A stretch of DNA of 64,000 bases from a virus (Duplodnaviria; Caudoviricetes): positions 1-64,000 of the IMG/VR virus record IMGVR_UViG_3300025730_000007. One strand, 5' to 3'. The translations under genes and the position numbers were made by a program. The notes under the pieces were generated by a model that did no database searches, was not told where the DNA came from, and was given only the letters and a program-made list of their open reading frames with translations. Each line of letters starts with the position of its first letter. The stretch's first letter is position 1. Shown in pieces: positions 1-60,144 of this stretch.

Positions 1-2487
1 ATTGCCTATCTCGACATTGAGACGGACTCCAGGTTGACGTTCACGCGTAAGCACGAGATGCGAGTGCTCTGCGCTTGTGTGGTTGCGGGGTGTGATGCGC
101 CAGAGTCCGACGTGCGCAAGGGGGAGCACGCAATGTTCGTGCTCGACCACGACACTGACGTTGACGAGGCTCGATTGCTGATTGACCTGTTCAATTGGCT
201 TGAGACGTTCGACGTGGTTGCGGCGTGGTACGGGGACGGCTTTGACTTTGAGGTACTCCGCGCACGGGCTCGCGCGCACGGGCTCTCCATCAACTTCCAG
301 CGCTGGAGGTTCCTCGATCACCTTGAGGTGTTCAAAGGGCTTAATTCCCACATTGCGGAGAGCGGTGAGGAGAAGCAGAGCATGGCCCTCAATACCGTAG
401 CGCAAGCGGTGCTCGGTGAGGGTAAGCACGACTTCGATTCGAGCAAGACGTGGCAGGCATGGGAAGCGGGGGGTGCAGAGCGGCAACGGATGTTCGACTA
501 CTGTCGCCAGGACACCGAGCTACTGCTCAAGATTGAGGAGCGTACCGGATACATCGCATTGTTCGGAACCATGTGCGCCGCGTGCAAGCTATTCGTCGAA
601 ACGTACTCACTCAAGAGTACCGCACAGATGGACGGCTTCATGTTGCGTCTCGGCAAGGAGCGCGGGTTCCACTTCCCGAGCAAGTTCGACGAGCCCATCC
701 CCGACCGCTATGCGGGAGCCTTCGTGCTCCACCCGGAGTGCAAGGGCATCCAGCACGATGTTCACGTTGCCGACTTCAGTTCGCTGTATCCGAGCATCAT
801 CATCAGTTGGAACATGAGCCCTGAGACGGTCGACCACAATGTCCCGGTCAACGGCCCCATTGCCCCCCACCTCTGTCGCGCACCTTCCACGGGTATCTCG
901 TTCCGCACCGACATCGAGGGGATGCTCCCCGTTGCGCTGAAGACGCTCATCGCAATGCGCAAGAAGTGGAACGACCTCAAGGCGTCATTGCCCCCCGGAA
1001 CCCCGGAATGGGTAGATGCCGATCGTTGGAGCATGGCATACAAGGTGCTCGCCAATTCGTTCTACGGGGTGCTCGGTAGCATCTTCTCTCGGTACTATGA
1101 CAGAGGCATTGCCGAGAGCGTCACTACCTCTGGCGCATGGCTCATCAAAGCTACCATCCACGAAGCCAAACAATGGGGGGGATTCGAGACCATCTACGGG
1201 GACACCGACTCCATCTTCGTGGCACGCGAGGGGGACGGTTCCGAGATAGGCTCAGTCGGCTATACCGACTTCATGCGCTTCGTGGAGCATTGCAACGCCA
1301 ACCTCTACCCCGACATGCTCAAGCGGCAGGGGTGCAAGGCCAACCGCATCTCACTCGCATACGAAAAGGCATTCAAGCGCTTGGCCCTCGTCAGTGCGAA
1401 GAAGTATGTCGGTGTCTATGCTCATTACAAGGGCAAGCCGGCAACCGCTGACAGCAAGCCCGAGGTGAAGGGGCTTGAGTACAAGCGCGGTGACACCGTA
1501 CGCCTCGCGCGGCAGATGCAGGGGGAGGTGATTGACCTGTTCGTTCGCGCGGTCGAGTCGGCTGATGAGTATGACCGGCTCGTCGAGCGGTGGAAGCTCC
1601 GAGTGTTGGAAGCCCCACTCGACATTGAGGATGTCGTGCTCTCGCAATCGCTCTCGATGCCGATTGAGGAGTACAAGGCCAAGACACCCCCGGCCCATGT
1701 CCGCGTTGCATCGCTTCTCAAGGAGCGGGGCGAGGACGTGTCGGTCGGGGTCAAGATTGCCTACTTCGTAGTCGACGGCAAGCCGGATGAGCCGGGGGGA
1801 GCGAAGGTTGCCCCGGCCAGCGATTGGACCGGGGAGTGCGACCGTTTCGCCCTCTGGGAGAATCTGGTCTACCCCGCGACTCAGCGGCTCCTTGAGGCAT
1901 CGTTCCCCGAGTACGATTGGACCCGCCATGCGAAGGTTCGCCCCCGCAAGCGGCGAGGCAAGGGGGCAAGCGGCGAGGACACCTTGGCGCTACCGTTGCC
2001 GGCCCCTAGCAGCCTCACCAGAGGCTCGCAGGGGGCAACCCCGGCCCCAACCCCTCGGCCCCCGGCCCGAGCCCATGGGGGGCCGTCTGTGCTCCCCCGC
2101 AAGCCGGCCAAGCCAACCCCCCAACCCCCGGCCCCTGCGGAGCCCGTGGGAGGCTCGGGGCCGGCCCCCCTTGCCCGTACCACCCCCCGGCTCCCGCAAG
2201 CCTCCCAGGGGGCAACCCCGGCCCCTGCCGCAACACGTATTGCGGTCACGCTCGATGCCAGGGACCGGCCCGAGGATGACCCGGCCCCCATTGCGGCGGT
2301 CAAAGCGCTCGCCAGCGTGTTCGACGCGTTGCCGGTCGGGGCCACCCCTGTCAGGGTCACTCTGCTTCTCGACGGTGGTGAGGTGGAGTTGGCGGTAGAG
2401 CGGAAGGTGGAATTGCGGCGGAGTACGATTGCCACCTTGCAGAAAACGGTGCTCGGGCTTGGCAAGGTGGCATTGATTACGGCATAA
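1..2487 (+). CDS. polB: Family B DNA polymerase with 3'-5' exonuclease (5' end outside window), Pro-rich linker and extra C-terminal domain
   Basis: Frame is open from base 1 (IAYLDIETDS = ExoI). Also ExoII WYGDGFD, ExoIII YCRQD, motif A DFSSLYPSII, motif B KVLANSFYG, motif C YGDTDS. Confidence 0.97.
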   Translation: MAYLDIETDSRLTFTRKHEMRVLCACVVAGCDAPESDVRKGEHAMFVLDHDTDVDEARLLIDLFNWLETFDVVAAWYGDGFDFEVLRARARAHGLSINFQRWRFLDHLEVFKGLNSHIAESGEEKQSMALNTVAQAVLGEGKHDFDSSKTWQAWEAGGAERQRMFDYCRQDTELLLKIEERTGYIALFGTMCAACKLFVETYSLKSTAQMDGFMLRLGKERGFHFPSKFDEPIPDRYAGAFVLHPECKGIQHDVHVADFSSLYPSIIISWNMSPETVDHNVPVNGPIAPHLCRAPSTGISFRTDIEGMLPVALKTLIAMRKKWNDLKASLPPGTPEWVDADRWSMAYKVLANSFYGVLGSIFSRYYDRGIAESVTTSGAWLIKATIHEAKQWGGFETIYGDTDSIFVAREGDGSEIGSVGYTDFMRFVEHCNANLYPDMLKRQGCKANRISLAYEKAFKRLALVSAKKYVGVYAHYKGKPATADSKPEVKGLEYKRGDTVRLARQMQGEVIDLFVRAVESADEYDRLVERWKLRVLEAPLDIEDVVLSQSLSMPIEEYKAKTPPAHVRVASLLKERGEDVSVGVKIAYFVVDGKPDEPGGAKVAPASDWTGECDRFALWENLVYPATQRLLEASFPEYDWTRHAKVRPRKRRGKGASGEDTLALPLPAPSSLTRGSQGATPAPTPRPPARAHGGPSVLPRKPAKPTPQPPAPAEPVGGSGPAPLARTTPRLPQASQGATPAPAATRIAVTLDARDRPEDDPAPIAAVKALASVFDALPVGATPVRVTLLLDGGEVELAVERKVELRRSTIATLQKTVLGLGKVALITA
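2228..2245 (+). repeat. 18-bp quasi-palindrome CCGCAACACGTATTGCGG, copy 1
   Basis: In-frame in polymerase linker (ATRIAV). Confidence 0.98.
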
Positions 2488-2506
2488 CCACACAGAGGAG
2501 GCCACT

Positions 2507-3070
2507 ATGAGACGCGTGGAGACACCCCCACAAGCGGAGCCGGTCAAGCCGACTAAACCATACCCGTTCGCCGACTCCGCATCTCGCCGCTATGTTCGCA
2601 CTGACCCCCACATGGCGCGCATATTCGAGACGCTCTTTCAGGTCGACATCTGGGAGAACTTCAAACGGCTCAAAGCCGCTCTGCGGGTGGGCGAGAAGCA
2701 TCGCGACTATGCAACACTGATGAAGGCACTCGACGAGGCGGAGGACAACGCCAGACTCGCCCACTCGCTGTTCGTCAATGCCAAGCTGGTCGCGGAGCGT
2801 TTCGAGACTGATGCCTTGCTCATCGAGGCGGGAATGCGCAAGGAGGCGACCGCGTTGCTCCAAGGGGAGAAGACGGCGGGTCGTCTCAGCAAGGCAATCA
2901 CAGACGCCGATGTGGTGGCTCAGTGTGCCACCATGTTTCCAGACGAGTGGACCCGTATCCAAGTGGACCGCCGTCAACACAAGCTCACCGTCAGTCACCT
3001 GGAGCACTTGGTGACTTGCTGGACAAGCCGATGCCGTAGCCTTCAGACCATGGTGGCGAAGGTGCGGTGA
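2507..3070 (+). CDS. Helical phage protein, possibly UvsY-like recombination mediator
   Basis: GAGGAG RBS; helical 187 aa with KAITDADV segment; sits between polymerase and SSB/RecA. Function inferred from context. Confidence 0.4.
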   Translation: MRRVETPPQAEPVKPTKPYPFADSASRRYVRTDPHMARIFETLFQVDIWENFKRLKAALRVGEKHRDYATLMKALDEAEDNARLAHSLFVNAKLVAERFETDALLIEAGMRKEATALLQGEKTAGRLSKAITDADVVAQCATMFPDEWTRIQVDRRQHKLTVSHLEHLVTCWTSRCRSLQTMVAKVR

Positions 3071-3109
3071 AGCACCCTACGGGGAACGCACAACGCAAGG
3101 AGATTGAAC

Positions 3110-5628: not shown

Positions 5629-6346
5629 CTGGCACCTAGATTCGGTCACTCTGGGTGTCTCGCGGTTCGATGACCTGTCAGTGGCATTGCGCCAACTGAT
5701 GACGACGGCACTCCAAGAGCGCCCGAGGTTGTTCCTCTTTCTGGGCGACCTCTGCAACCCGGATCGGGGGGCTCGCACCCTCAAAGCCATCTCCACCGTC
5801 GCCCTCTATGCGCGGATGTTGGCCGAGAATGACATCGAGTCGGTGTGGTTGGCCGGCAACCACGATGTCGTCGATTCCAGCGATATCGTCAGTAGCCTCA
5901 CCCCGTTGGGGAGCATGCCGTTCCTCCACGTTGTCGAGAAGCTCGGTTCGATGCAGATTGACGGGTGGCACTTCGTGTTTCTGCCGTACATCAGTCGTGT
6001 TCTCCAAGCCGAGATTGACGTGCGCCGCTTCGTCGAGCGGGAGTGTGTGCTCGCCGCCGACAAGGGGTTGAGGACCGTCATCGCCGGCCATTGCACGCAT
6101 ATCGACGGGGCCGTCAATGGCAACGAGACAACACTGATGCCGAGGGGTCGCACAATGGCGTTCCCCACCGACATCGGCAAGCGCTACGGGGCAATCATGT
6201 TCAATGGTCACTACCACACTCGCCAACATACCCCGAGCGGCGTCTACATCCCCGGTTCGCTTGGCCGGTTCGACTTCGGGGAGGAACGCAACACCCCCTC
6301 GTTCTACGTCTTCGATACGGAGGTGAACCCATGGCCCGAAGACTAG
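5606..6346 (+). CDS. SbcD/Mre11/gp47-like metallophosphoesterase nuclease subunit
   Basis: ADWH, GDL, GNHD, GHYH motifs; GSL..FDFGE. Confidence 0.92.
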   Translation: MKVIVTADWHLDSVTLGVSRFDDLSVALRQLMTTALQERPRLFLFLGDLCNPDRGARTLKAISTVALYARMLAENDIESVWLAGNHDVVDSSDIVSSLTPLGSMPFLHVVEKLGSMQIDGWHFVFLPYISRVLQAEIDVRRFVERECVLAADKGLRTVIAGHCTHIDGAVNGNETTLMPRGRTMAFPTDIGKRYGAIMFNGHYHTRQHTPSGVYIPGSLGRFDFGEERNTPSFYVFDTEVNPWPED

Positions 6347-6801
6347 TGAACCCGCCACTCCCCTTCCCCACCGCAACACGTATTGCGGCGGACTACCTCA
6401 TTCGACCCGTCGACCTCGATAGCATCGAGTTCGTGACCGTCAGTATCCCCCGCACGAAGCGCGGGGAGCGCCCAACGGTGAAGGGGAAGTTCGTGCGTGT
6501 CGCGCCTCGCGTCGGGGCCACTGAGGCGCAAGTGCAAGAGTTCGTGAGGTGGGCCGAAGCCGATGGGGCCAAGGGCATCAAGGTGCTCGCCATCCCCCGG
6601 CCCGATGTCATCAGTGCTGACAAGGCGCGAGAGGTGATGGAGGCGATTGACGACCTCACGGGCGAGAACCGGAACAACACCATATCCACCGTCGTGGCCG
6701 AGCTTGTGGAGCAGTCGACCATCAGCGACGAACTGAAGCCCTTGCTCCTGCAATACTGCCAAACAACCCTGGAGGAGAGCGATGTACCTGACGACGATTG
6801 A
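6331..6801 (+). CDS. Probable separately encoded C-terminal part of SbcD-like subunit
   Basis: Own GGAGG RBS and ATG at 6331; lies between SbcD-like and SbcC-like genes; KFVRV strand followed by helical end. Confidence 0.5.
   Translation: MARRLVNPPLPFPTATRIAADYLIRPVDLDSIEFVTVSIPRTKRGERPTVKGKFVRVAPRVGATEAQVQEFVRWAEADGAKGIKVLAIPRPDVISADKAREVMEAIDDLTGENRNNTISTVVAELVEQSTISDELKPLLLQYCQTTLEESDVPDDD
6371..6388 (+). repeat. 18-bp quasi-palindrome copy 2
   Basis: In-frame in ORF 6331 (ATRIAA). Confidence 0.98.
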
Positions 6802-8785
6802 GGTGGAGAACTGGCTCCCCTTCAAGGGGGTACAGAGGATTGACCTGGAGGCTACGTGCTACGCGGTAGTCGCTGAGGTGGACGGCGAAGAGGGCCGCTC
6901 AAACTGGAGCGGGAAGACCTCATTCCTCGAAGCCATCCCGTTCGCTCTGTTCGGACTCCACCGCAAGCGCACCGAGGATGAGTGGATCTTCGACAAGGCG
7001 ACGAGCGGGGGAGTGCATCTGCACTTCAGCAACGGGGTTGTCGTCTCGCGTACGCGCAAGCGGGGCAACGCGACTGAGCTTGTGGTCGACGACAATGACA
7101 CCATCCATACCGGGGTGGAGGCGCAAGGCTTCATCGAGCGGATGCTTGCCATGAGCCGCGACGACTTCCTCAACACGAGCTACTTCCGGCAGAAGGACAT
7201 CGCTCGCATCGTGTATGCCAAGCCGGCAGAGCGCGCCAAGGAGTTCGCCTCGTGGTTCCGGCTCGGAATGCTACGCAAGGCGGAGGCTACCACCCTCGCA
7301 CGGCTCAATGCCTTGCGGGGAGAGGTCGACAAGCTCAATGAGCATCTCGCAGGGCTCACTCTCGGCATGGCGCAAGCGCTCGGGGAGGACAAGCCAGACC
7401 TCGCCGGCAAGACCGTGAGCGAGTATCTTGCACTCGGGTGGACCCGGCTCCAGTCCAAGCGCGACCGAGCGAAGGAGTACGCGGACCAGAAGCGGGTGGC
7501 CCACAATGCCACCCTGGAGGCGTATAGCGGGGTCAAAGCCGAGGCAGAGGCATGGCAGGGCCACTTCGCCAACGTCGAGCGTTATCGGGCGATTGTGGCC
7601 GAGCGCAAGGGGCTCGGGGTTGCCGACGCGGCAGGGGCCGCAACCACCGCAACACGTATTGCGGCGGAGGCGGCGAAAGCGCAAGAGGCCAAGGCTACCG
7701 CCGAGAACGAGGTGCGGAGAGCACACGACTTGCTTGTGGGTGAGTTCGACGGCGTATGCCCCGTCAACCGCATGCAATGCCCCGCAAGCGAGCAGATACT
7801 TGCGGCGGAGAAGCTCAACCGCAAGCGCTACGACAACGCGGTAGAGGCGTCGCGCAAGGCCGGCGAGGAATCGAGGCATCTGAACGGCAAGCTCGTTGAA
7901 GCCAACGCGGAGGCGCGGCGACAGCGGAACATCGAGAAGCGCAGAGCGGAACTTGACACCATTGCGGCGGAGTGCAAGCCGAGCCTCATCTACATCAACA
8001 CTCACCCAGAAGCCCCTAGCATCGACCACCTCAAGCGCGAGAAGGAAGCGGCGTATGAGGTGTTCGCGGATGCCGACCGCAACCACCGCAACCTCGCAGA
8101 GCTTGTGGAGGATTGGAAGCCGGGGACTGCGGAGGCGGCGAAGGCCGAGCAGCGCTTGCTTGAGATTGAGCAGGAGATGTCGGTGCTCCAAGCGGCGGCA
8201 GTCGTGCTCGGCAGGCAAGGGGCGCAACGGGTCATTGCGGAGCGCGTGCTCCAGGGCATTGTGCTCAGTGGCAATGCCAAGCTCCACGACTGCATGATTG
8301 ACCTGGAGTTCAACATCACATGGGCGCGTGAGGGCAAGGGGCTTTCCGACGTATGCACCTCTTGCGGCTTCCCCTTGCCGGCCAGTCAGCGGGTCAAGCG
8401 GTGTCCGCGTTGTGACGCGGAGCGCGGCAACAAGACCATCGACAAGAGTGACATTCTCTTCTCCGACCGCTCTGGTGCGGCGGAGGACATCATTGGAGGG
8501 GTCATTCGCTTGGAGGCGGGGAGTTGGTTCAAGCGCGACCGTGGCAGTCAATGGGGGGTACTCCTTATCGACGAGCCGTTCGGCGCGCTCGACGAGGCCA
8601 ACCGCGACGCGTTCACCCGCCTCCTTCTGAGCGCTTGCACGCTGGACCAGGGCAACCCTCAAGCGTTCGTTGTGGCCCATCACAACGACGTTATGAGCAC
8701 GATGCCGGCCATGATTCGCGTGCAACGCCACGAGGGCTATTCGACAGTCACGGCAATTGGAGAGGAGGCTCTCAATGAGGAGTGA
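6782..8785 (+). CDS. SbcC/Rad50/gp46-like SMC ATPase
   Basis: Walker A SNWSGKTS, long coiled coil, central CPVNRMQC hook, Walker B/D-loop LLIDEPFGALD, H-loop VVAHH. Confidence 0.93.
   Translation: MYLTTIEVENWLPFKGVQRIDLEATCYAVVAEVDGEEGRSNWSGKTSFLEAIPFALFGLHRKRTEDEWIFDKATSGGVHLHFSNGVVVSRTRKRGNATELVVDDNDTIHTGVEAQGFIERMLAMSRDDFLNTSYFRQKDIARIVYAKPAERAKEFASWFRLGMLRKAEATTLARLNALRGEVDKLNEHLAGLTLGMAQALGEDKPDLAGKTVSEYLALGWTRLQSKRDRAKEYADQKRVAHNATLEAYSGVKAEAEAWQGHFANVERYRAIVAERKGLGVADAAGAATTATRIAAEAAKAQEAKATAENEVRRAHDLLVGEFDGVCPVNRMQCPASEQILAAEKLNRKRYDNAVEASRKAGEESRHLNGKLVEANAEARRQRNIEKRRAELDTIAAECKPSLIYINTHPEAPSIDHLKREKEAAYEVFADADRNHRNLAELVEDWKPGTAEAAKAEQRLLEIEQEMSVLQAAAVVLGRQGAQRVIAERVLQGIVLSGNAKLHDCMIDLEFNITWAREGKGLSDVCTSCGFPLPASQRVKRCPRCDAERGNKTIDKSDILFSDRSGAAEDIIGGVIRLEAGSWFKRDRGSQWGVLLIDEPFGALDEANRDAFTRLLLSACTLDQGNPQAFVVAHHNDVMSTMPAMIRVQRHEGYSTVTAIGEEALNEE
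7647..7664 (+). repeat. 18-bp quasi-palindrome copy 3
   Basis: In-frame in SbcC coiled coil (ATRIAA). Confidence 0.98.
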
Positions 8786-10222: not shown

Positions 10223-10240
10223 CCGCAACACGTATTGCGG
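10223..10240 (+). repeat. 18-bp quasi-palindrome copy 4
   Basis: Intergenic. Confidence 0.98.
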
Positions 10241-10260: not shown

Positions 10261-10614
10261 GTGGTTATCTGGCTCTCGAATGACTGTTACATCAAGGCCG
10301 ACGATGGCGTCTGCTTTGAACTGATGAAGCGCTACAAGCGCAAGAAGGGCGACAATGCGGGGGCATGGACGCAGAAGGCGCTCGGTTACTATGGCACTCT
10401 GGAACAAGCCCTCCACGGCGCATTGAACAAGGCAATCCTCAACAAGAAGGCGGAGGGCGATACGCGGGAGATGCTCGCCGCCATCCAGGCAATCGCCACC
10501 CGCATCACCGAGGCTGCTATGGGGGCCGTGACGGCTTCCCAAGCGGCGAACATCGAGGCATCCTTCACCCACGAGGAGATTGAGAATCTCCTCTTCTTTG
10601 AGGACGACCAATGA
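10261..10614 (+). CDS. Hypothetical protein
   Basis: AAGGAGG RBS then GTG at 10261. Confidence 0.65.
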   Translation: MVIWLSNDCYIKADDGVCFELMKRYKRKKGDNAGAWTQKALGYYGTLEQALHGALNKAILNKKAEGDTREMLAAIQAIATRITEAAMGAVTASQAANIEASFTHEEIENLLFFEDDQ

Positions 10615-15392: not shown

Positions 15393-15410
15393 CCGCAACA
15401 CGTATTGCGG
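15393..15410 (+). repeat. 18-bp quasi-palindrome copy 5
   Basis: Intergenic, upstream of a promoter. Confidence 0.98.
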
Positions 15411-19566: not shown

Positions 19567-19584
19567 CCGCAATACGTGTTGCGG
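19567..19584 (-). repeat. 18-bp quasi-palindrome copy 6 (reverse orientation)
   Basis: Intergenic; stem extended to CCTGCCGCAA/TTGCGGCAGG. Confidence 0.98.
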
Positions 19585-20784: not shown

Positions 20785-20802
20785 CCGCAACACGTATTGC
20801 GG
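20785..20802 (+). repeat. 18-bp quasi-palindrome copy 7
   Basis: Intergenic. Confidence 0.98.
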
Positions 20803-23545: not shown

Positions 23546-23563
23546 CCGCAACACGTATTGCGG
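23546..23563 (+). repeat. 18-bp quasi-palindrome copy 8
   Basis: Immediately after a TGA stop. Confidence 0.98.
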
Positions 23564-25568: not shown

Positions 25569-26284
25569 TGGGTGTCTATGCGGTGAAAGAGGTGTTCGGT
25601 TCCTTCCAGGGCGAGGGCTACCATGCCGGTCGCCCATGCGTGTTCGTGCGCTTCGCAGGGTGCGACGTCTGGGACGGCAAGGAGGAGAACCGTGCGGAGG
25701 CGGCGAGGGAGCGGGGTGGTTGCGCCCTCTACTGCGACACAGACTTCGTTGGCACTGACGGCCACAATGGCGGAAGGTACAAGGGGGTCGGCGCTCTGGT
25801 CGGTGTTGCTCAGTACGAGTGGGACCGATGCGCCATGGCAATCCCCGCTCATTGCCACTCCGCCGCAACACGTATTGCGGTGAGCCCCCGGAAGTACGTT
25901 GTCTTCACGGGCGGCGAGCCCACCTTGCAACTCGACGAGGAACTGATTGCCGCGTTCAAGCGTGAGGGGTGGGAGACGGCCATTGAGACGAACGGGAGCA
26001 ACCACCTTCCCCCCGGCTTGGATTGGGTCACACTGAGCCCCAAGCCCCCCAAGCGCGTCGTGCTCACTCAGGCCAGCGAAGTCAAGTGCCTCTACCCCGA
26101 CGTGGTACGAAACCCGCTCGACTACGAGGCACTCGCCGCCAAGCGCTATGTCCAACCCATCGACAAGCGCACTCACTCCGAACTCGACGCCTTGCGATCC
26201 CTTGACACTTGCGTGCAATTCGCACTGAAGCACATCGGGTGGAAGGTATCACTCCAACTCCACAAGCTGATGGGGGTGCCATGA
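25568..26284 (+). CDS. queE: 7-carboxy-7-deazaguanine synthase (radical SAM)
   Basis: [14 protein letters not shown]...Cxx[23 protein letters not shown]. Confidence 0.95.
25863..25880 (+). repeat. 18-bp quasi-palindrome copy 9
   Basis: In-frame in QueE (ATRIAV). Confidence 0.98.
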
Positions 26285-26856: not shown

Positions 26857-27563
26857 TTGACACACCCAAAGAGACACGAGAGTCCACGGATGCCGTGGTG
26901 GTATTGAGCGGGGGCCAGGACAGCACGACATGCCTCTACCACGCTCGCCGCCGACACCCGCACATCCACGCTATCACCTTCGCGTACGGGCAACGCCACC
27001 AGAGCGAGCTATCGGCCTCCAGGCTCATCGCCCGCATGGCCGGGGTGGCAACCCATAGGGTCGTGGACCTGAGCCCGTATGGAGCCCTTGTCGCCTCGGC
27101 ATTGACCGACCCCAAGCTCCCCGTCGCCCCGGAGGGGGGAATGGGCAACCTACCCTCCACCTTCACCCCCGGTCGCAACCTCGTGTTCCTTACCATCGCC
27201 GCGTCGTGGGCCGTGAGCATGGGGGCATGGGAGGTCTACACCGGAGTGTGTCAGACGGACTACAGCGGATATCCCGACTGCCGACTTGAGACGATTGCCG
27301 CGTTGGAGGTGGCAATCAATCTCGGGTTGCCCGAGGGGCATGGCATCTGCTTCGACACGCCACTGATGCACATGACCAAGGCGGAGATGGTGAAGCTCGC
27401 CGCCTCCCTCGACGGTTGCATGGAGGCACTCGCGGAGAGTGTCACTTGCTACCACGGCAAGGTTCCGGGGTGCGGAGCTTGCCCCGCTTGCGTACTGAGG
27501 GCCAAGGGGTTCGCGGAGGCAGGCATTGCGGACCCGGCTCAACCGCAACACGTATTGCGGTAG
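26853..27563 (+). CDS. queC: 7-cyano-7-deazaguanine (preQ0) synthase
   Basis: [26 protein letters not shown]...CGACPAC. Confidence 0.97.
27543..27560 (+). repeat. 18-bp quasi-palindrome copy 10
   Basis: Last six codons of QueC (PQHVLR). Confidence 0.98.
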
Positions 27564-30091: not shown

Positions 30092-30109
30092 CCGCAACAC
30101 GTATTGCGG
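30092..30109 (+). repeat. 18-bp quasi-palindrome copy 11
   Basis: Between ParB-like stop and TerL start. Confidence 0.98.
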
Positions 30110-31762: not shown

Positions 31763-31780
31763 CCGCAATACGTGTTGCGG
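31763..31780 (-). repeat. 18-bp quasi-palindrome copy 12 (reverse)
   Basis: 2 nt after TerL stop. Confidence 0.98.
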
Positions 31781-33514: not shown

Positions 33515-33532
33515 CCGCAACACGTATTGCGG
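33515..33532 (+). repeat. 18-bp quasi-palindrome copy 13
   Basis: Intergenic. Confidence 0.98.
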
Positions 33533-36348: not shown

Positions 36349-36366
36349 CCGCAACACGTATTGCGG
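36349..36366 (+). repeat. 18-bp quasi-palindrome copy 14
   Basis: Intergenic. Confidence 0.98.
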
Positions 36367-36442: not shown

Positions 36443-36991
36443 ATGAACTACGTTCTCATCCACTATCCCGCTGACGTGCGACTCGTAGGTACGAAGCACA
36501 ATACCGAGTTCGCTCATCTGCTACGTACGAGGGGCGGAGTGCTCCTCCCCGTGGCAGACAATGGGCTCAACACTCTGCACGATTGGGCTCGGCGCGAGTA
36601 CGGGCATCAGGGGCAATTGCCACCTTCCCCCAACCACGTTCTGCGGGGGCCGATCTTCTACATTGACGGGCAACGTTCCATCTCGTGGGCCATGCTGCTC
36701 GACACGGAAGGGGCAATCAGCGGGCGGGTCACTCCGGTGCCGAGTACGGTGCAGAGCGGCAACGGCTTCGTGCGGCTTCACCCGAGTGGCACACAAGCCA
36801 TCGGCATCGACACCGCAACACGTATTGCGGTGAAGGGCGAAGGGGAGAGTACCGTGGAGAGCGAGTGTCTGCTTACGGGGGAGTTCGCCGTCAACCCCGC
36901 ACAACACGGCTTCACGGCGATTGACTTCTACTTCTCCTTCCCCAAGGGCTTCTCCGTTCGGTGGATTGCCGTTGCGCAAGTAGCGAGGTGA
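36443..36991 (+). CDS. Hypothetical protein
   Basis: AAAGG RBS then ATG 36443; contains in-frame 18-bp repeat. Confidence 0.6.
   Translation: MNYVLIHYPADVRLVGTKHNTEFAHLLRTRGGVLLPVADNGLNTLHDWARREYGHQGQLPPSPNHVLRGPIFYIDGQRSISWAMLLDTEGAISGRVTPVPSTVQSGNGFVRLHPSGTQAIGIDTATRIAVKGEGESTVESECLLTGEFAVNPAQHGFTAIDFYFSFPKGFSVRWIAVAQVAR
36813..36830 (+). repeat. 18-bp quasi-palindrome copy 15
   Basis: In-frame in ORF 36443 (ATRIAV). Confidence 0.98.
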
Positions 36992-41471: not shown

Positions 41472-41489
41472 CCGCAACACGTATTGCGG
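41472..41489 (+). repeat. 18-bp quasi-palindrome copy 16
   Basis: 2 nt after gpF stop. Confidence 0.98.
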
Positions 41490-44619: not shown

Positions 44620-46011
44620 ATGCCACTCGTCGTCGGAATCCCGCCCGTCATTCTCAATCTCATTCAGGAAGGTGTCTTGGAGCGCGCATTCCACGACGCC
44701 TTGTACCCCAAGCTCCAGTTCCGAGCGGAGGCGCTCGCGGAGGAATGGCCGGCGAACATCGGTACTGAGATGTTCATGACTCGGCCCGGACTCCTCACCC
44801 CGATCACGGAACCCCTCCCGGTCGGCACCGATCCCGTTCCGCAGCAACTCAGCTACGAGCAATGGAGTGCAAGCCTGAAGCGCTACAGCGGGACCATCGA
44901 CACTCACATGCCGACGAGCGTGGTGTCGAACGCCAACCTCTTCCTCAGCAACATCAATCAGCTTGGGCTCCAAGCGGGTCAGTCGGTCAACCGGCTCCCG
45001 CGCAATGCCCTGTTCAAGTCGTACCTGAGCGGGCAGACGCTCACGACGGCGGCAATCGCTGCGGTGGATACGCAGATCCAAGTCGCCTCGTGCAACGGCT
45101 TCTTCGACGTCATTCTGCTCGGCACGAATGCTCGTCCAGAAGCCGTGTCTCCGACTCGCCCGTTGCCCATCACCATCGGAGTCGGCGGCGGAGCCGTCCA
45201 GCGCAACGTCATCGGCGTTGCTCCCGTGGATGCGACTGACCCCTACGGACCGGGGACTCTGTTCCTCGATGCGGCGGTCGGCGCAGTCTTCCCCGCGCGT
45301 ACGCCGGTTCGCAGTGCCTACGCTCCTCGCGTGGTCAGGGCGGGAGGTGGCGCGAGCATCGACGCCATCACCGGAGCGGACATCTTCACGTTCCAACTCA
45401 TCATCAATGCCATGTCCATCCTGCGGTCGAACAACGTTCCTCCGCACTCCGACGGCTTCTACCATTGCCACATGAGTCCGCTGTCGAACGCGCAGATCTT
45501 CAGCGACGTTGCGTGGCAGCGACTCCACACCGGAACCCCGGATCACATCCGGTACAAGGAGGGGTGGATCGGGCAGATCGCGCGCAACGCGTTCTTCGAG
45601 AACAACGAGATTCCGAACCAGTCCAACTCGGGAGCACTGACACCGACCGGCGCGAATGCTCAGTACGCTCGCGGCATCGGCGGCGAAGTGGTCAATGAAG
45701 GTGGCGTGGAGATCGGGCGTCTCATCATGACCGGCAAGGGCTCCATCTACGAGAAGTATCTCGACGAGATGAAGTACGTGACCGAGGCGGGAATGCAGGG
45801 CAAGGTCGGCGAGTTCGACGTGGTGCAGAACGGCATCCAGGTCGGCACCGAGCGCATCCGTCTCTACCTCCGTTCTCCGCAGGACCGACTCGGCGACATC
45901 GTGTCCTCGACGTGGAGCATCTCGACGGACTTCCCCGTGCCGTCCGACATCAGCGGCGGAAGTGGCCCCGAGCGCTACAAGAGAGCCGTAGTCATCGAGC
46001 ATGCCCTATAA
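44620..46011 (+). CDS. Major capsid protein
   Basis: GGAGG RBS; 463 aa after scaffold; YHCHMSP...D, KRAVVIEH C-terminus. Confidence 0.85.
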   Translation: MPLVVGIPPVILNLIQEGVLERAFHDALYPKLQFRAEALAEEWPANIGTEMFMTRPGLLTPITEPLPVGTDPVPQQLSYEQWSASLKRYSGTIDTHMPTSVVSNANLFLSNINQLGLQAGQSVNRLPRNALFKSYLSGQTLTTAAIAAVDTQIQVASCNGFFDVILLGTNARPEAVSPTRPLPITIGVGGGAVQRNVIGVAPVDATDPYGPGTLFLDAAVGAVFPARTPVRSAYAPRVVRAGGGASIDAITGADIFTFQLIINAMSILRSNNVPPHSDGFYHCHMSPLSNAQIFSDVAWQRLHTGTPDHIRYKEGWIGQIARNAFFENNEIPNQSNSGALTPTGANAQYARGIGGEVVNEGGVEIGRLIMTGKGSIYEKYLDEMKYVTEAGMQGKVGEFDVVQNGIQVGTERIRLYLRSPQDRLGDIVSSTWSISTDFPVPSDISGGSGPERYKRAVVIEHAL

Positions 46012-46022
46012 TGCTCGATGAG

Positions 46023-46051
46023 TTTACATCGGCGACAATGCGGTGTAGACT
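46023..46051 (+). promoter_or_regulatory. Sigma70-like promoter TTTACA-N17-TAGACT (leaderless start of HNH)
   Basis: -10 ends just before ATG 46058. Confidence 0.55.
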
Positions 46052-46057
46052 CTGTGC

Positions 46058-46747
46058 ATGCGTAGGCTAATCTCTCATCCAACTCCTCAGTCCTCACCAA
46101 CCGATCTCACCAACCGACGATTCGGGAAGCTCACCGCTATCACACTGAGTGGTAGTCGGCAGGGGCGAAGTCTATGTTGGGTGTGTGAGTGTGATTGTGG
46201 AAGACGAATCGAAGTTCCGGCCAACAGACTGAGGGCGATGCGAACATGGCATTGTGGCTGTCAGGGGCATGGCAGACATGGCATGGTAGGAACCAAAGTC
46301 TACCGCGCATGGCAGGCTATGAAGGAGCGATGCCACAATCCCAATCACGCGGAGTTCCACAATTACGGAGGCAGGGGAATCAAGGTGTGTGACGAATGGC
46401 GCGATGACTTTCTCGCGTTCTATGAACACATAGGAGATCCCCCAACTGATAAGCACACTATCGACCGCATTGACTTCGACGGTGACTATGAGCCTGACAA
46501 CATGCGATGGGCAACACCCAAGGAGCAGGCGAGGAACCAACGAAGCAATCGACTCGTGGTCTACAAGGGGCAGAGTCGATGTGTGAATGAATGGGCAGAG
46601 ATTCTAGGCATCAAACCAATTACACTCTACTTCAGGTTGAGGAATGGATGGTCTGTGGAGCGAGCGTTTGAGGAGCCTGTTCAATCAAGACGTATACGTT
46701 CTCAATCGCTAGCCCTTGCCGCAATACGTGTTGCGGTGATAGGCTAG
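46058..46747 (+). CDS. Free-standing HNH homing endonuclease
   Basis: RFGKLT, CECDCG, HGM...YRAWQAMKERC.NP, YGGRGIKVC, TIDRID.DGDYEP.N.RWAT..EQARN. Confidence 0.93.
   Translation: MRRLISHPTPQSSPTDLTNRRFGKLTAITLSGSRQGRSLCWVCECDCGRRIEVPANRLRAMRTWHCGCQGHGRHGMVGTKVYRAWQAMKERCHNPNHAEFHNYGGRGIKVCDEWRDDFLAFYEHIGDPPTDKHTIDRIDFDGDYEPDNMRWATPKEQARNQRSNRLVVYKGQSRCVNEWAEILGIKPITLYFRLRNGWSVERAFEEPVQSRRIRSQSLALAAIRVAVIG
46719..46736 (-). repeat. 18-bp quasi-palindrome copy 18 (reverse)
   Basis: 3' end of HNH gene (AIRVAV). Confidence 0.98.
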
Positions 46748-48073: not shown

Positions 48074-48564
48074 CGACCATCAAGATTGACCGCTTGTCTG
48101 CCGCGTTCGGGCGCATGTTCGAGTCGTACCGTGCGGCTCAGAAGCGCGGGTTGCTCAACGCGGCAATCAAGGGGCAGTCGTGGATCGTCACCAAGATACT
48201 CCCGAGCATTGAGCCCTATCCACCGTTCGACATGGGGGCATTCAGGGCGGGTTGGAACTTCAAAGCAACCGAGGACGGGGCAATCATCTTCAACCCTGTT
48301 CCCCATGCTCCGTTCATCAACTTCGGTGTCCCCAAGCCGAGAGTGTCTGGGAGGCACCTTGTCGAATGGGTCATTCGGAAGAACATCGCAGACTCGAAGA
48401 ATGCCCCGCGCGTTGCGTGGTTGATTGCACGCAAGATCAATGCAAGGGGTCTGTTCACTGACCCTCAATTCCGAATCACCCAGAGGGTGGTTGACGAGTT
48501 CCTGGTCAAAGAGGTTGCGGCTCAGATTGTTGCCGAGTTGCAGAAGGTGGGGTGGAAGCCGTGA
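48070..48564 (+). CDS. Neck/tail completion protein (HK97 gp10-like)
   Basis: PFDMGAFRAGW, HAPFINFG, ARKINARG. Confidence 0.65.
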   Translation: MTTIKIDRLSAAFGRMFESYRAAQKRGLLNAAIKGQSWIVTKILPSIEPYPPFDMGAFRAGWNFKATEDGAIIFNPVPHAPFINFGVPKPRVSGRHLVEWVIRKNIADSKNAPRVAWLIARKINARGLFTDPQFRITQRVVDEFLVKEVAAQIVAELQKVGWKP

Positions 48565-49253
48565 GTCACTACTCGTTTGAAGGGTTGGTGAAGGGCATTG
48601 CCTGGAATGAGGTATGGCCCCCTCAACAACCCCCCGGCCTCAAGGACTTTGCTGCTCGCGACTACGCGCTAGAGCGCTTGTTCGACTACCTCGCAACGGT
48701 CGTCTGGAGGCACACTGGCCGGGACCGGGATGGTGAACCCGTCGAGTTCCAGATTGAGCGTTGCCGGATGTTCGTCGAGCAACCAGAGGGTGACATCAAG
48801 CTCAAGTTCCCGGCCATTGCCGTGCTCCCGAATAACAATGCACCGGAGTCAGAGTGGCTCGGTTCCCCAATCATTGTCGATGACGGGAGGGCCGGCATCG
48901 AGCCGAGCAAGTATGACCGCTTCGGAGAGCAGACTGTGCTCGTGTGTGCGGCGGAGTTGAGCGAGGATGTCATTCTCGATATGTGGTTTGAGACTCGCGC
49001 CCAACGCAGAGCGGTGCAAGCCGGCATGGAGGGGCCAGTAATGACCACGAACCAGGGGCCGCTCTATCTCACTCTGCCGGGGTACTATGACCGCATCGCG
49101 TGCTTCACCTACATGGGGTCGCGCCGCTTCGATGGAGACTTCGCGGTCAAGAACCGGCGCGAGTTGCAGGTCACTCTCAACCTGCGAGTGGAGTGCGTGT
49201 TCCCCGTCCTGGCGAGGGACTTCGATCCTCGCCTTCTCATGGAGACTGAGTGA
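48561..49253 (+). CDS. Tail terminator-like protein
   Basis: FPAIAV, directly upstream of sheath. Confidence 0.6.
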   Translation: MSHYSFEGLVKGIAWNEVWPPQQPPGLKDFAARDYALERLFDYLATVVWRHTGRDRDGEPVEFQIERCRMFVEQPEGDIKLKFPAIAVLPNNNAPESEWLGSPIIVDDGRAGIEPSKYDRFGEQTVLVCAAELSEDVILDMWFETRAQRRAVQAGMEGPVMTTNQGPLYLTLPGYYDRIACFTYMGSRRFDGDFAVKNRRELQVTLNLRVECVFPVLARDFDPRLLMETE

Positions 49254-52793: not shown

Positions 52794-52934
52794 GGGCACC
52801 CCGCGTTCAGCGGCAATTGTGGCCCTCCCTTGCGCGGTATCCGGCTCGGCTAGGTGTCGGTCGTGACGGTGGCCTCCAACCCCGCGCAAGTAAGAGGGCC
52901 ACCCTTTCATTGGAGGCCGGAAGGAAAGAACACC

Positions 52935-53564
52935 ATGGCACACAAGCAAAGCAACCAACCCGCAGACGCCGCAACACGTATTGCGGCGGACCCCTCCCAA
53001 CTCATCAGCACGGGGGCAACCGAGATCCCACTCGACGAAGCCCTCAGTTCCGATGATTCGGCAATGCCAGACAAGTCCAGCATTGCCGCCGCGATGCAAG
53101 CGCTCGCTGATACCCCCGCACCGAAGTCGATGCGTGACGTGGAGGAAGCGGACGCCATCCCACCATGGGCCACTATCCCACCGAACTTCAATCCTCCCAA
53201 GGGAGTGCAAGTCATCTTCATGCTGTTCAAAGCCGAGTGGACTGCCAACCCCCGCAAGGGCAATCGGCAAGCCATCGCATGGCCGGTCACAGTCATGGAG
53301 GAGAAGAACGCACTCAGTCGCGCTCGTGGCGACGTACTCCGCAGCATCGACGAACTCAGCAAGGCGATGGTCAAGTACATCGACGGGGTTCCGGTTGACT
53401 GGACCGGGGCCAACCGCGAGGGCAACATTGACCAATGGTGGAATGAGGTCGGCCCCAAGTGTCGCAACATTCTGCACCGCATCTACACACAGACGCACAA
53501 CCTGAGTGATGACGAGCATGCCGATTTTTTCGAGAACTGCATCGCTGTCAGAACGGTGGGCTGA
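52935..53564 (+). CDS. Tail assembly chaperone (G)
   Basis: Between tube and tape measure; ends near a slippery site. Confidence 0.75.
   Translation: MAHKQSNQPADAATRIAADPSQLISTGATEIPLDEALSSDDSAMPDKSSIAAAMQALADTPAPKSMRDVEEADAIPPWATIPPNFNPPKGVQVIFMLFKAEWTANPRKGNRQAIAWPVTVMEEKNALSRARGDVLRSIDELSKAMVKYIDGVPVDWTGANREGNIDQWWNEVGPKCRNILHRIYTQTHNLSDDEHADFFENCIAVRTVG
52969..52986 (+). repeat. 18-bp quasi-palindrome copy 20
   Basis: In-frame in chaperone N-terminus (ATRIAA). Confidence 0.98.
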
Positions 53565-53845
53565 GTGAGTATGCGGATGTTCGTCAGAAGCAACTGACCA
53601 AGCTGGGAGTCGACTTCGACCCTCACTTGCGCTCAGTCCGCTACATCCTGTCCGAGATTGACCCTGCGGAAGTGCTCCGTTGGCGTTCTCGGCAGAAGAT
53701 GGAGCTAGGTCGCTATGGGCGGCAATCCGTTCTGCAATGGGACGCGGTTCCGCTGCTAGAGTTCCTGCGGTATCATAGCGACCTAGTGAAACTCATCGAC
53801 AACGAAAACACCCGCTCAGGCGGCACGATGCCAGGGGAAGACTGA
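53525..53845 (+). CDS. Tail assembly chaperone GT extension via -1 frameshift at T TTT TTC
   Basis: Heptamer at 53525-53531; -1 frame is open without stop to 53845. Confidence 0.75.
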   Translation, partial: FFRELHRCQNGGLSEYADVRQKQLTKLGVDFDPHLRSVRYILSEIDPAEVLRWRSRQKMELGRYGRQSVLQWDAVPLLEFLRYHSDLVKLIDNENTRSGGTMPGED

Positions 53846-55848
53846 TGGCGGATACAGCCGAGGTCCAGGTCAAGCTAACGCTCGATGACGCTGCGTCCAA
53901 GGTGGCTGACACCATCAAGGGCAAGTTCGGTCAGCTTGGCAAAGCAGCCGACAAGATAAAGTCGGAGTTCATGTCGGTGGCGAAGGGGGCATTGACTACC
54001 GCCATCGGTGTCAATCTTGCCCCCGGCTTGCAAGGCATTGTCGGCGCGTTCAAGGGTATGGTCGACAACGCTGCTTCGGTTCAAGAGCGGATGCGGGCGA
54101 TTGCGAGCTACTTCGTCACCGGGGCTGATATGGCTTGGGATGCGGCGATGGACCGAGCCACCAGAATCGATCGCGAACTCTACAAGGCTTCAATTGCGAT
54201 TGGTCAGAACATCGATGACGCGAGACGCGCATTCCAGAACCTTGCTACGCAGAGCGACGGTACGGTCGAGGGGATCGAAGCCGCCGCAAAGACGACTGAG
54301 AAACTCCTCATGTTCGCTGACATTACGGGGGAGAGCGTCACGGCAATCTCTGACGAGTGGGCCATGATGGAGCGAGGCATGGTTCGCACTCGTGGCAAGA
54401 TGTTCAAGATGCTCTTTAGCACTGGCATCTTCGGGAAGAATCTGCGCGAGGCGTCCTCGTATTGGGGGAAGCTGACTGACGAGCAACGCTCGGCGGCAAT
54501 GGCGAAGGCAATGGGGACTATCTATGAGCGCTTCGCCAAAGCTCCGCAGACGTTTGCATCGGTGCAGACGTCGTTGGATATGGTCAAGCAACGGTTGCTC
54601 GACGTGGTGGGGATGAACGTCATTGGCGTGTTGACTGCCAAGTTCGACAACCTTTTGCAAGCCATTGAGGGCAAGCGTCCTCAGTTGGAAGCCATCGCGG
54701 CTCGGTTCGGGAAGTTCCTTGGGGCTCAGATCGAGGGAGCCCTCAATTGGGCCGGGGAGAAGCTCACTTGGCTTGAGGACCATTGGGATGACGTGGTGAA
54801 GGGGGCAGAGGAAGGGGCCAAGGCAATCCTCAAAGCGGTGAAGTTCATTGTCGAGAACAAGGAACTCATCCTCATGGCATACGGGCTCAATGTCATGGCT
54901 CCTTCGATTCAGTTGGGCATTCAAGCAGCGGGGGCATTGAAGCCCATGCTCATCGGTCTGAAGGCACTCAGTTTCACTTCACTCCCTGCGTTCACTACCA
55001 GTGTGACAGCGGCGGCAGGGAGTGCCGCGACTCTTGCGCTTCAGTTCGCCGCTGTCGCAGCGGCGGCTCTTGCCATCTATGCCGCGTTCGATCAGTACAA
55101 GAAGCTCCAGAGTGAGGGTGGCTTCCGGCAGGCATGGCAAGAGGCGCGCTACGGACCAGGAATGCACTATAGCGAAGCCGACATCGAGGCTACGCGTAAG
55201 AGCATCCAAGAGCAGCAAACGGCGGGAGGTGTCGAGTCCGCAGCGGCAATCATACAGCAGAAGCAGGAGAGCCTCGCTGCAATGAAGGCGAAGGCTCAGG
55301 CCAAGTTCGGCGCATCGGCTCCAGAGCATTACGAGGCAATGGGCATCACTGCGATGGAGAACATGCTCGCCAAGTTCGAGAAGACCATGCCGACCGCCGC
55401 GAATGTGGCGTTCGCCGCTACCGTTCAGACGCAGAGCGAGTTGATTGCCGCGTACAATCAAGCCGTCAAGACTGGCGATGACGCGATGGCGAACTACCTC
55501 GCAAACCTCGCCGGCAAGAGTGAGAGTCTGGCGTACGGGTTGAACGATTCCTCGGTGCAGATTGAGGGTGGTTTTGACGGCTTCATCAACCGGCTCGGCA
55601 CCACGACTCGCACCTTCGTGGAGAAGCTCAACAATATGTACTCCGAGCAGCATCCACAGAACGTGAAGCCCAAAGAGGCGGCAACCAAGTCCCCCGCTAT
55701 CCACATGAGCGGGGGGCAGACGTTCAATATCAAACAGGAGTTCCGCGAGGCAGACCCGGACAGGATTGCCTTGTTCTTCCGGCGCGACCTCGTGCGTGCC
55801 GCAACGTCTCGCACTCGCTCGCGGGTGAGGACGCCATTCGGGGCATGA
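53845..55848 (+). CDS. Tape measure protein
   Basis: VKLTLDDAAS, Ala/Gly/Lys-rich helical, hydrophobic central segment. Confidence 0.85.
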   Translation: MADTAEVQVKLTLDDAASKVADTIKGKFGQLGKAADKIKSEFMSVAKGALTTAIGVNLAPGLQGIVGAFKGMVDNAASVQERMRAIASYFVTGADMAWDAAMDRATRIDRELYKASIAIGQNIDDARRAFQNLATQSDGTVEGIEAAAKTTEKLLMFADITGESVTAISDEWAMMERGMVRTRGKMFKMLFSTGIFGKNLREASSYWGKLTDEQRSAAMAKAMGTIYERFAKAPQTFASVQTSLDMVKQRLLDVVGMNVIGVLTAKFDNLLQAIEGKRPQLEAIAARFGKFLGAQIEGALNWAGEKLTWLEDHWDDVVKGAEEGAKAILKAVKFIVENKELILMAYGLNVMAPSIQLGIQAAGALKPMLIGLKALSFTSLPAFTTSVTAAAGSAATLALQFAAVAAAALAIYAAFDQYKKLQSEGGFRQAWQEARYGPGMHYSEADIEATRKSIQEQQTAGGVESAAAIIQQKQESLAAMKAKAQAKFGASAPEHYEAMGITAMENMLAKFEKTMPTAANVAFAATVQTQSELIAAYNQAVKTGDDAMANYLANLAGKSESLAYGLNDSSVQIEGGFDGFINRLGTTTRTFVEKLNNMYSEQHPQNVKPKEAATKSPAIHMSGGQTFNIKQEFREADPDRIALFFRRDLVRAATSRTRSRVRTPFGA

Positions 55849-55850
55849 CA

Positions 55851-55868
55851 CCGCAACACGTATTGCGG
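55851..55868 (+). repeat. 18-bp quasi-palindrome copy 21
   Basis: 2 nt after tape-measure stop. Confidence 0.98.
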
Positions 55869-59797: not shown

Positions 59798-59804
59798 GTG
59801 CGCC

Positions 59805-60119
59805 ATGGGAAGCCCCCCACCCAAGTCAGAGCCACCCCCCGAGGAGCAGGATGTCGTCGATGCTGGCGTCGACTTCGACCCGGAGCCGCCGACCGCTGCG
59901 TCGTTGTGTGGGTTCAAGTTCCCACCATCGTTCACGTTCTTCTTCAGCTTCAACTTGCCGGCCTTGCCGGCTTGTTTGCTGGACCCTCTGTCGTGTATTC
60001 CGTTCCCGTGGTTGTCACTCAATTGCGACCTCTCCAACCCCGTCAGCGTAGGGTGGGGAGGTGGCAAGGAGCCAACGGTGGACGACGAGGACAATACAGA
60101 GGACAATCCCTACGATTGA
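59805..60119 (+). CDS. Small Pro/Cys-rich baseplate-region protein
   Basis: ORF between spike and wedge genes. Confidence 0.55.
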   Translation: MGSPPPKSEPPPEEQDVVDAGVDFDPEPPTAASLCGFKFPPSFTFFFSFNLPALPACLLDPLSCIPFPWLSLNCDLSNPVSVGWGGGKEPTVDDEDNTEDNPYD

Positions 60120-60126
60120 CGCACAA

Positions 60127-60144
60127 CCGCAACACGTATTGCGG
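60127..60144 (+). repeat. 18-bp quasi-palindrome copy 22
   Basis: Intergenic in baseplate module. Confidence 0.98.

Follow-up and report, generated by a model that had tools for sequence, protein, structure and literature searches.

An invariant 18-bp near-palindrome dispersed through an uncultured Caudoviricetes genome: possible binding sites of a symmetric dimeric protein

Occurrence and authenticity of the element

What does a short DNA element do for a phage in which it recurs throughout the genome without a single mismatch? The question is raised by the first 64,000 nucleotides (hereafter, the window) of the 85,194-bp IMG/VR virus record IMGVR_UViG_3300025730_000007 (Duplodnaviria; Caudoviricetes; labelled G000 as a whole), which is rated complete. 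In the window the 18-bp near-palindrome CCGCAACACGTATTGCGG occurs 22 times, on the plus strand at 18 positions and on the minus strand at four (19567, 31763, 43532 and 46719). The explanation favoured here, with a probability of roughly 55%, is that the 31 sites of the whole record are binding sites for a symmetric dimeric protein that co-evolves with them and has a role in the whole chromosome.

An earlier reading of the window, made from the sequence only, had listed the 22 coordinates and strands, the 18 copies that share one orientation of the asymmetric loop, and gaps of 0.5-5.2 kb; coordinates, strands and counts are exact, and the gaps between neighbouring sites measure 0.46-5.3 kb. The 18-mer arose in none of 100 shuffles of the window, and a search of the window that allowed up to three mismatches added no copy, its additional matches being the same sites on the opposite strand. 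When the count was extended to the rest of the genome, the record was found to contain 31 exact copies (25 plus, 6 minus) and none with one or two mismatches; the genes of G000 lie almost entirely on the plus strand.

The motif is not an assembly artefact, a possibility that the sequence-only reading had raised: the exact 18-mer is present in other viral contigs from different metagenomes, and orthologous copies are held by four independent contigs (G004, G005, L010 and G002), the first three of which match the window at 95-99% identity along their own length and carry the motif at the same positions in the same orientation. Because orthologous sites have the same orientation in independent assemblies, the C/T and G/A difference between the two halves of the motif was also ruled out as a sequencing or modification artefact. 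A literature search for the motif sequence itself found nothing.

Palindromes of related phages

The relative G001 is a complete genome of 92,970 bp with terminal repeats, syntenic with G000, with a GC content of 53% compared to 61% in G000 and with proteins about 50% identical to those of G000 (range roughly 30-70%). It contains 29 perfect palindromes with a CACGTG centre, two asymmetric copies and three one-off variant copies. The perfect palindrome kept in this distant relative, CCGCAACACGTGTTGCGG, represents the ancestral form of the element. A closer relative, G002 (approximately 77% DNA identity to G000), has ten perfect copies with a TACGTA centre and two asymmetric copies. At six orthologous junctions of G000 and G001, the 18-mer matches at 17 of 18 positions amid 60 flanking bases that match at 35%, which is near random; such a contrast implies strong purifying selection on the site itself.

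More distant relatives were reached through the major head protein. One of these (G006, IMGVR_UViG_3300046323_000673, 83.9 kb) has 22 copies, 20 exact and two near, of an element of about 30 bp that consists of two adjacent 12-bp palindromes, ATCCAATTGGAT-CG-ATCCAATTGGAT, plus flanks. Another (G007, IMGVR_UViG_3300035445_000156, 91 kb, GC 71%) has 16 copies of the palindrome GAGATAACACCGGTGTTATCTC. The centres of the G006 and G007 palindromes, TCGA and CCGG, are self-complementary. Members of the clade thus have palindromes of the CCGCAA type, the ATCCAATTGGAT type or the GAGATAACAC type, or none, as in G008 and G009. AACAC is common to the half-sites of G007 and G001, with a centre 2 bp wider. 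One junction has a site in all four genomes (G000, G001, G006 and G007), and the sharing of junctions across lineages is not beyond chance. No cultured relative was found by DNA search, and no large terminase of a cultured phage exceeded 25% identity.

In 185,579 bacterial species genomes (596 Gb), the 18-mer had 62 matches, one per genome, and no genome held it above chance numbers. Many of the matches, in Alphaproteobacteria, encode P-Q-H-V-L-R in a conserved MerR-type helix-turn-helix (HTH; PQHVLRFWE); they are a coding coincidence and not phage-related sites. Mimicry of a host repeat or operator was accordingly ruled out by these single genomic matches, many of them within the MerR-type coding stretch.

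At approximately 36950-37000 of G002 (equivalent to 36330-36400 of the window), runs of C and G stand where G000 has A and T, and the motif is garbled; this stretch looks like low-quality assembly rather than a true loss of the site.

A duplex DNA site

The base preceding the 18-mer (position -1) is A or G at 31 of 31 sites in G000, and the base following it (position +1) is T or C at 31 of 31, with the same preference in G001. The two positions do not covary: they form complementary pairs at 16 sites compared to 15.7 expected. The sequence-only reading had noted that several stems are extended by flanking bases, which is true of those sites and is at chance level overall. A purine/pyrimidine preference without covariation indicates that each half-site has the same preference, not that a longer stem is formed. 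Three unrelated palindrome families have self-complementary bases (ACGT, TCGA and CCGG) where a hairpin would have its loop, and the nested palindrome of G006 has no rationale as a hairpin. Taken together, the symmetry of the flanks, the self-complementary centre and the palindromes of the relatives, one of them nested, argue for double-stranded DNA read by a symmetric dimer rather than an RNA hairpin, and the element is most likely a 20-bp dyad-symmetric duplex site, R-CCGCAAYACGTRTTGCGG-Y.

The asymmetric centre and avoidance of CACGTG

Each of the 31 sites of G000 has exactly one changed half-site, for which independent changes of the halves would have a probability of approximately 0.5^31; C and T half-sites are therefore not mixed at random. 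A single transition per site destroys the hexamer CACGTG. Outside the motif, CACGTG is depleted in G000 (3 observed, 30 expected), G002 (0 of 19), G004 (0 of 6.5), G005 (0 of 4.2) and a contig of the TACGTA type, 3300036594_000014 (0 of 17), and its frequency is normal in G001 (24 of 31), G003 (6 of 8) and G006 to G009. The lineages with an altered centre (CACGTA or TACGTA) are exactly those that purge CACGTG genome-wide. Rather than signalling orientation, the asymmetric CACGTA centre is best seen as a scar left by avoidance of CACGTG, and the avoidance is most simply explained by a host restriction enzyme that cuts CACGTG. With the TACGTA centre, symmetry may have been regained later, together with an adaptation of the binding protein.

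Other words are avoided as well: in G000, 27 of 47 testable 6-bp palindromes fall below 0.2 of expectation, among them GAGCTC (0 observed, 55 expected), GGGCCC (0 of 48), CCCGGG (0 of 47), CGGCCG (0 of 46) and CTCGAG (2 of 67). The set avoided by G001 is a different one, of 17 words, and G008 avoids none. Such sets are the usual signature of heavy, lineage-specific restriction pressure.

The sequence-only reading had noted that most copies share one orientation of the asymmetric loop and had taken the invariant loop as a sign of sequence-specific recognition. Genome-wide, specifically recognized DNA sites are still the best reading; the asymmetry is no part of it, as it occurs only in lineages that purge CACGTG and the relatives have perfect CACGTG or TACGTA palindromes. 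The orientation bias (25:6 in total) is largely a coding effect: the sites within coding regions (approximately ten) are all on the plus strand and intergenic sites are divided 15:6, and G12 to A is the mildest change in both of the reading frames used, replacing Val with Ile in the frame that reads ATRIA and being synonymous in the frame that reads PQHVLR, with Thr to Ile or His to Tyr as the alternative. The weakest hairpin in mRNA is that of the commoner orientation; this may make a small contribution to the bias. The idea that G12, in a TGT context like that of a tRNA-guanine transglycosylase substrate, is a target of DpdA was rejected because G001, with 34 palindromes, has no homologue of QueC, QueD, QueE, FolE, DpdA or DUF5591.

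Spacing of the sites

The sites are distributed along the whole genome at roughly one per 2.7 kb, more evenly than random placement would produce. The coefficient of variation (CV) of gap lengths is 0.45 in G000 (p < 5e-5), 0.51 in G001, 0.47 in G006 (p=1e-4), 0.44 in G007 (p=7.5e-4) and 0.45 in the fragment G002 (p=0.007), compared to approximately 0.9-0.95 for random placement across the genomes tested (about 0.95 for G000). Sites drawn at random from the gene junctions would also be less evenly spaced. Gaps at both extremes of length are missing, which suggests that each site has a cost and that coverage has a benefit. Invariant sites spread over a whole genome are more readily explained by a coverage role, such as loading, anchoring or marking of phage DNA, than by the control of individual promoters.

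Positions of the sites in the window

The 22 sites of the window are as follows (coordinates, strand, location).

2228..2245, plus: in the family B DNA polymerase open reading frame (ORF) 34-2487, C-terminal linker; reads A-T-R-I-A-V
6371..6388, plus: approximately 410 nt upstream of the SbcC-like gene, within unconfirmed ORF 6043-6801; G001 equivalent at 12051
7647..7664, plus: within the SbcC-like gene (6782-8785); reads A-T-R-I-A-A
10223..10240, plus: intergenic, with the GTG start of a small DUF5405-like gene (10261-10614) 20 nt downstream; G001 ortholog at 15839
15393..15410, plus: upstream of gene 15458-16423, 13 nt ahead of a sigma-70-like -35 hexamer
19567..19584, minus: intergenic, between 16434-19514 and 19620-20015; five complementary pairs added by the flanks
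20785..20802, plus: intergenic, followed by AGGAG and by ATG 14 nt downstream
23546..23563, plus: 0 nt past the TGA of 22940-23545, followed 14 nt downstream by the start codon (ATG) of a gene for a D12-class adenine methyltransferase; G001 ortholog at 29696
25863..25880, plus: within the QueE-like radical-SAM gene (25568-26284); reads A-T-R-I-A-V
27543..27560, plus: final six codons of QueC (P-Q-H-V-L-R-stop), with the DpdA-like ATG 14 nt downstream; G002 retains CACGTA
30092..30109, plus: 0 nt past the TGA of the ParB-fold gene and 10 nt upstream of the large terminase ATG
31763..31780, minus: 2 nt past the large terminase TGA; left edge of a segment non-homologous to G002
33515..33532, plus: intergenic, with AGGAGG and ATG 20 nt downstream; G002 retains CACGTA
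36349..36366, plus: leader, approximately 100 nt upstream of the likely start of ORF 36284-36991
36813..36830, plus: within ORF 36284-36991 (A-T-R-I-A-V); A-I-R-I-A-A in G002, a gap of nine residues in G001
41472..41489, plus: 2 nt past the TGA of gene 39382-41469 (putative intein); borders a non-homologous segment
43532..43549, minus: intergenic, upstream of gene 43549-44463
46719..46736, minus: intergenic, approximately 700 nt past the major head protein gene (44620-46011); right boundary of a non-homologous segment
49256..49273, plus: 2 nt past the TGA of 48552-49253; G001 ortholog at 67196, G007 palindrome at the same junction
52969..52986, plus: N-terminal coding region of ORF 52854-53564; insertion compared to G002 (see below)
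55851..55868, plus: 2 nt past the TGA of 53845-55848 and 15 nt upstream of an ATG; G001 ortholog at 73158
60127..60144, plus: between 59805-60119 and 60160-61035; palindrome at this junction in G000, G001, G006 and G007

Six sites lie 0-2 nt past a TGA stop codon (23546, 30092, 31763, 41472, 49256 and 55851), exactly as had been read from the sequence. About ten of the 31 sites in the genome lie within ORFs, including those for the DNA polymerase, the SbcC-like protein, QueE, the last codons of QueC and a DnaG-type primase; seven or eight of these read ATRIA and two read PQHVLR. The sites occupy tolerant places, either the gap that separates a stop codon from the following ribosome-binding site or parts of genes that accept an in-frame copy. 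Gene 39382-41469 has a weak Pfam match to intein splicing (residues 270-559), and only its C-terminal 154 residues align to G001.

Gain of sites and edges of non-homologous segments

Some sites were gained as insertions. The site at 52969 is a clean 24-nt in-frame insertion compared to G002, and two of three paralogous leaders at 77-79.4 kb of the genome (77082, 78834 and 79331) contain the motif plus CA, 20 nt that the third does not have. These leaders also contain a GGTTCGAYTCC hairpin that resembles a tRNA T-arm, and in two of them the motif plus CA is directly 5' of the hairpin. The primase site shows no insertion or deletion compared to G001.

A site lies at an edge of six of the 12 segments in which G000 and G002 are non-homologous (40-bp rule, p=0.012), which hints that the sites may mark module boundaries or favour exchange there. 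Segments without DNA homology to G002 are as follows.

31708-32359, window
41457-41701, window
43572-43768, window
46007-46715, window
60115-60386, window
63962-64216, genome
69137-69522, genome

Proposed mechanism and candidate binding proteins

In the favoured explanation, a symmetric dimer would read the 20-bp site as two half-sites, and sites would be kept invariant at about one per 2.7 kb for loading, anchoring or marking phage DNA. The ancestral CACGTG centre would have become a liability, likely because a host restriction enzyme cut it, and one transition per site would have changed CACGTG to CACGTA in the lineage of G000; a sister lineage would have gone on to TACGTA, restoring symmetry.

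One gene product can be put forward as the binding protein.

29327-30091, plus: candidate only, a ParB/Srx-fold protein with a GGHQR motif, common to the motif-sharing G000, G001 and G002

Its membership of the ParB/Srx superfamily is indicated by a match to PHROG 620, by homologues with PF02195 and by the GGHQR motif, although the Pfam ParB_N family scored below threshold on the protein. In the AlphaFold model (mean predicted local distance difference test score 82), the N-domain matches Noc and ParB (fold matches include 6sdk, 7ol9 and 8qa9), and the gene adjoins one site (30092). The sequence-only reading had named this protein as a possible binder, together with a TerS-like product of 22940-23545; the ParB-like N-domain holds up, the binding role is left in doubt by the structure and distribution described in the next paragraph, and the TerS-like assignment has no family support in Pfam or PHROGs. 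A 165-residue protein (genome 75513-76010) has two weak HTH matches, and a sigma-70 region-2 protein (genome 82537-83271) is conserved in G001, G006, G007 and G008. A small DUF5405-like gene follows a site in both G000 (10223) and G001; DUF5405 was the only result from the ESM Atlas.

Several observations weigh against the favoured explanation. A search for a binder with Pfam and PHROGs among approximately 70 ORFs yielded only the two-HTH, sigma-70 region-2 and ParB-fold proteins, and no gene stood out cleanly as a candidate when presence and absence were compared between relatives with and without palindromes. The one protein with a clear HTH (genome 75513-76010) shares 28% identity between its G000 and G001 versions. 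In the model of the ParB-fold protein, the N-domain appears to be followed by a 39-residue helix and short helices with no evident HTH; genes of this fold are present in G008 and G009, which lack palindromes of this kind, and the search found none in G006 with its 22 copies. The role in whole-chromosome coverage is deduced solely from spacing statistics, and the restriction enzyme from word depletion. It is by parsimony only that the retention of one unchanged half-site at every site of G000 is explained. Approximately ten sites lie 10-26 nt upstream of a start codon beside a Shine-Dalgarno sequence, which would also suit a role at the RNA level, an argument tempered by the tight packing of genes that forces sites into such positions.

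Alternative explanations

A tentative place may be given to the proposal that the palindromes are a bar-code of the genome, that is, evenly spaced, lineage-specific identity tags by which a phage factor distinguishes its own chromosome from the DNA of the host or of rivals. A tag would be present on any stretch of about 5 kb, a clamp-like NTPase of the ParB fold might be the factor, and the tags would serve for protection, packaging choice or recombination with kin and would be re-coined when host restriction makes the old one lethal. If true, this would be a phage counterpart of the dialects of DNA uptake sequences. In Neisseria and Haemophilus, these are asymmetric sequences of 9-12 nt that are read by the competence machinery; the likeness (dialects of lineages, genome-wide tags of self, placement in intergenic regions and permissive frames) is an analogy of logic only. 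Somewhat more doubtful is the loading of the ParB-fold NTPase (29327-30091) at the palindromes as at parS, with sliding or spreading in the manner of KorB or ParB. Identical palindromic operators dispersed over a replicon are known from RK2, where 12 OB operators of KorB are spread over 60 kb, and a CACGTG core is present in parS. The 16-bp parS consensus TGTTNCACGTGAAACA is matched, by eye, only at its central CACGTG and only in the relatives. Loading of this kind would draw on the palindromic form of the sites, on a ParB-fold protein that is encoded beside one of them and is common to the genomes that share the motif, on even spacing that suits a sliding clamp, and on the likeness of its N-domain to the ParB/Noc CTPase fold and of GGHQR to the DGQQR motif of DpdB and SspE (PMC10164549). 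A ParB-like protein, gp90, is also annotated in the mycobacteriophage Corndog, whose genome has 34 dispersed inverted repeats of 17 bp; this is a lead only. The sites do not belong to the ParB-parS class that the sequence-only reading had offered as a parallel: the consensus is not matched, no ParA was found, the sites are dispersed rather than clustered, and ParB-fold genes, without an evident HTH, do not track the palindromes. It is unlikely that the sites are a network of stoperators or operators at which a repressor blocks elongation or initiation genome-wide (as with L5 gp71, the conserved inverted repeats of phiC31 and the C1 operators of P1), for silencing or as a temporal switch. In keeping with such a network, the near-invariant sites number in the tens, are dispersed, lie for the most part in short gaps within co-directional operons, have lineage-specific sequences like those of immunity groups (PMC6550527) and include one copy 13 nt upstream of a sigma-70-like promoter. 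L5-type stoperators, however, are asymmetric 13-14 bp sites of a monomeric immunity repressor in temperate phages, oriented with transcription (PMC9283540, PMC6550527). They resemble the present sites in number (some 20-36), in dispersal among short intergenic regions and in a lineage-specific motif that co-evolves with its binder, and differ in that the present sites are dyad-symmetric, as the palindromes of relatives and the R/Y flanks show, and that no lysogeny genes, integrase or parABS module were found in a gene set that suggests virulence; membership in the class, another parallel drawn in the sequence-only reading, is not upheld. About a third of sites lie within genes, and no link of sites to sigma-70 promoters was found, promoter-like sites being few and not tracking the motif, in a search that did not extend to promoters of the phage sigma factor.

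The sequence-only reading had also considered an mRNA processing signal. A hairpin of RNA or single-stranded DNA, an intercistronic stem-loop that stabilizes, processes or terminates polycistronic mRNAs or tunes their translation, would account for the many sites directly past a stop codon and 10-26 nt ahead of the next start, for a modest folding energy (-8.5 to -11.9 kcal/mol) and for a commoner orientation that gives the weakest hairpin in mRNA. This is quite unlikely, given the evidence for dyad symmetry set out above, stems that are invariant and hence show no covariation, sites in both orientations, and the sites within genes for the polymerase, SbcC-like protein, QueE and primase; no U-tract was found at the sites, no link to intrinsic terminators was found, and Rfam covariance models gave no match at the gathering score. 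Still less probable are sites for a host protein, such as a regulator, nucleoid-occlusion factor or partition factor that the phage recruits or titrates, the lineage-specific sequences then reflecting the hosts. The failure of the search to yield a phage binder and the different motifs of lineages that range from 53% to 71% GC, and so probably have different hosts, would be explained; none of the 185,579 species genomes, however, holds the motif above chance. Least probable of all is a selfish miniature palindromic insertion element that copies itself ectopically, survives where it is tolerated and has no function for the phage. The clean differences of 20 and 24 nt between filled and empty sites, in-frame survival in one benign reading frame and the sites at segment edges are what such an element would leave. 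Perfect conservation at orthologous junctions across approximately 50% protein divergence, where the flanks are randomized, is not; nor are the lack of decayed copies, a spacing far more even than a random pick of permissive junctions, and the concerted change of all sites to avoid CACGTG. Repetitive extragenic palindromic (REP) elements, a further parallel suggested in the sequence-only reading, are imperfect extragenic palindromes with GTAG or CGTC heads that are associated with a Y1 (RAYT) transposase (PMC3733652). The present sites resemble them as short palindromic repeats past stop codons and fall outside the class: no match to the Y1 transposase family PF01797 was found in the genome, the copies are invariant, and about ten are within ORFs.

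Comparison with dispersed repeats of actinophages

The closest known kind of element is the dispersed inverted repeat of Cluster O and Cluster EG actinophages. Such repeats number from 8 to more than 30 per genome. Among Cluster O mycobacteriophages, Corndog has 34 invariant copies of the 17-bp inverted repeat TGTTCGGNNNCCGAACA, both intergenic and intragenic (PMC4351075), and the lytic Microbacterium phages of Cluster EG have the 18-bp inverted repeat GATCAACCNNGGTTGATC at 14-22 bp upstream of start codons (PMC7302621). Their function is unexplained; the authors propose a dimeric regulator and doubt a transcriptional role (PMC4351075, PMC7302621). The present element has in common with these repeats the invariant arms, the tens of copies in short intergenic gaps and ORFs, the absence from host genomes, and, in G000, segment edges comparable to the insertions and deletions that repeats bound in those phages; the gp90 annotation of the Corndog record is a further likeness. 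It differs in having a palindrome that continues across the centre, leaving no free spacer, and in being evenly spaced, whereas the 34 copies in Corndog (NC_004685) are clustered in the right arm (CV 1.06, p=0.77). It also belongs to a deep uncultured clade with lineage-specific palindromes and one concerted change of centre tied to hexamer avoidance. No homology to these phages was found by terminase comparison, and the motif sequences are unrelated.

Dispersed invariant inverted repeats are known from a few actinophage clusters and have never been explained. Here the trait spans phages of 84-93 kb, and the differing palindromes amount to natural swaps of specificity with which co-variation of a binder can be sought. 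Spacing under selection points to a role in the whole chromosome rather than regulation gene by gene, and the concerted change of some 30 sites as a nested 6-bp word became forbidden suggests that host restriction can reshape a regulatory or architectural code of a phage.

Gene content of the phage

The phage looks virulent from its gene content: the 85-kb record has no match to PF00589, PF00239 or PF13614 (tyrosine recombinase, serine recombinase and ParA) and encodes a large set of replication proteins (family B polymerase, DnaB-like helicase, DnaG-like primase and UvrD helicase) and recombination proteins (UvsX-like recombinase, SbcC-like protein and RusA), a combination that suggests a virulent lifestyle. 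Other genes encode the sigma-70 region-2 protein, the D12 methyltransferase and a preQ0/7-deazaguanine cluster. This cluster (24790-29330 of the window), which is absent from the syntenic G001, encodes QueD (PTPS), a QueE-like radical SAM protein, FolE and QueC by Pfam, with weak matches to MazG, DpdA and DUF5591 (ArcS-like).

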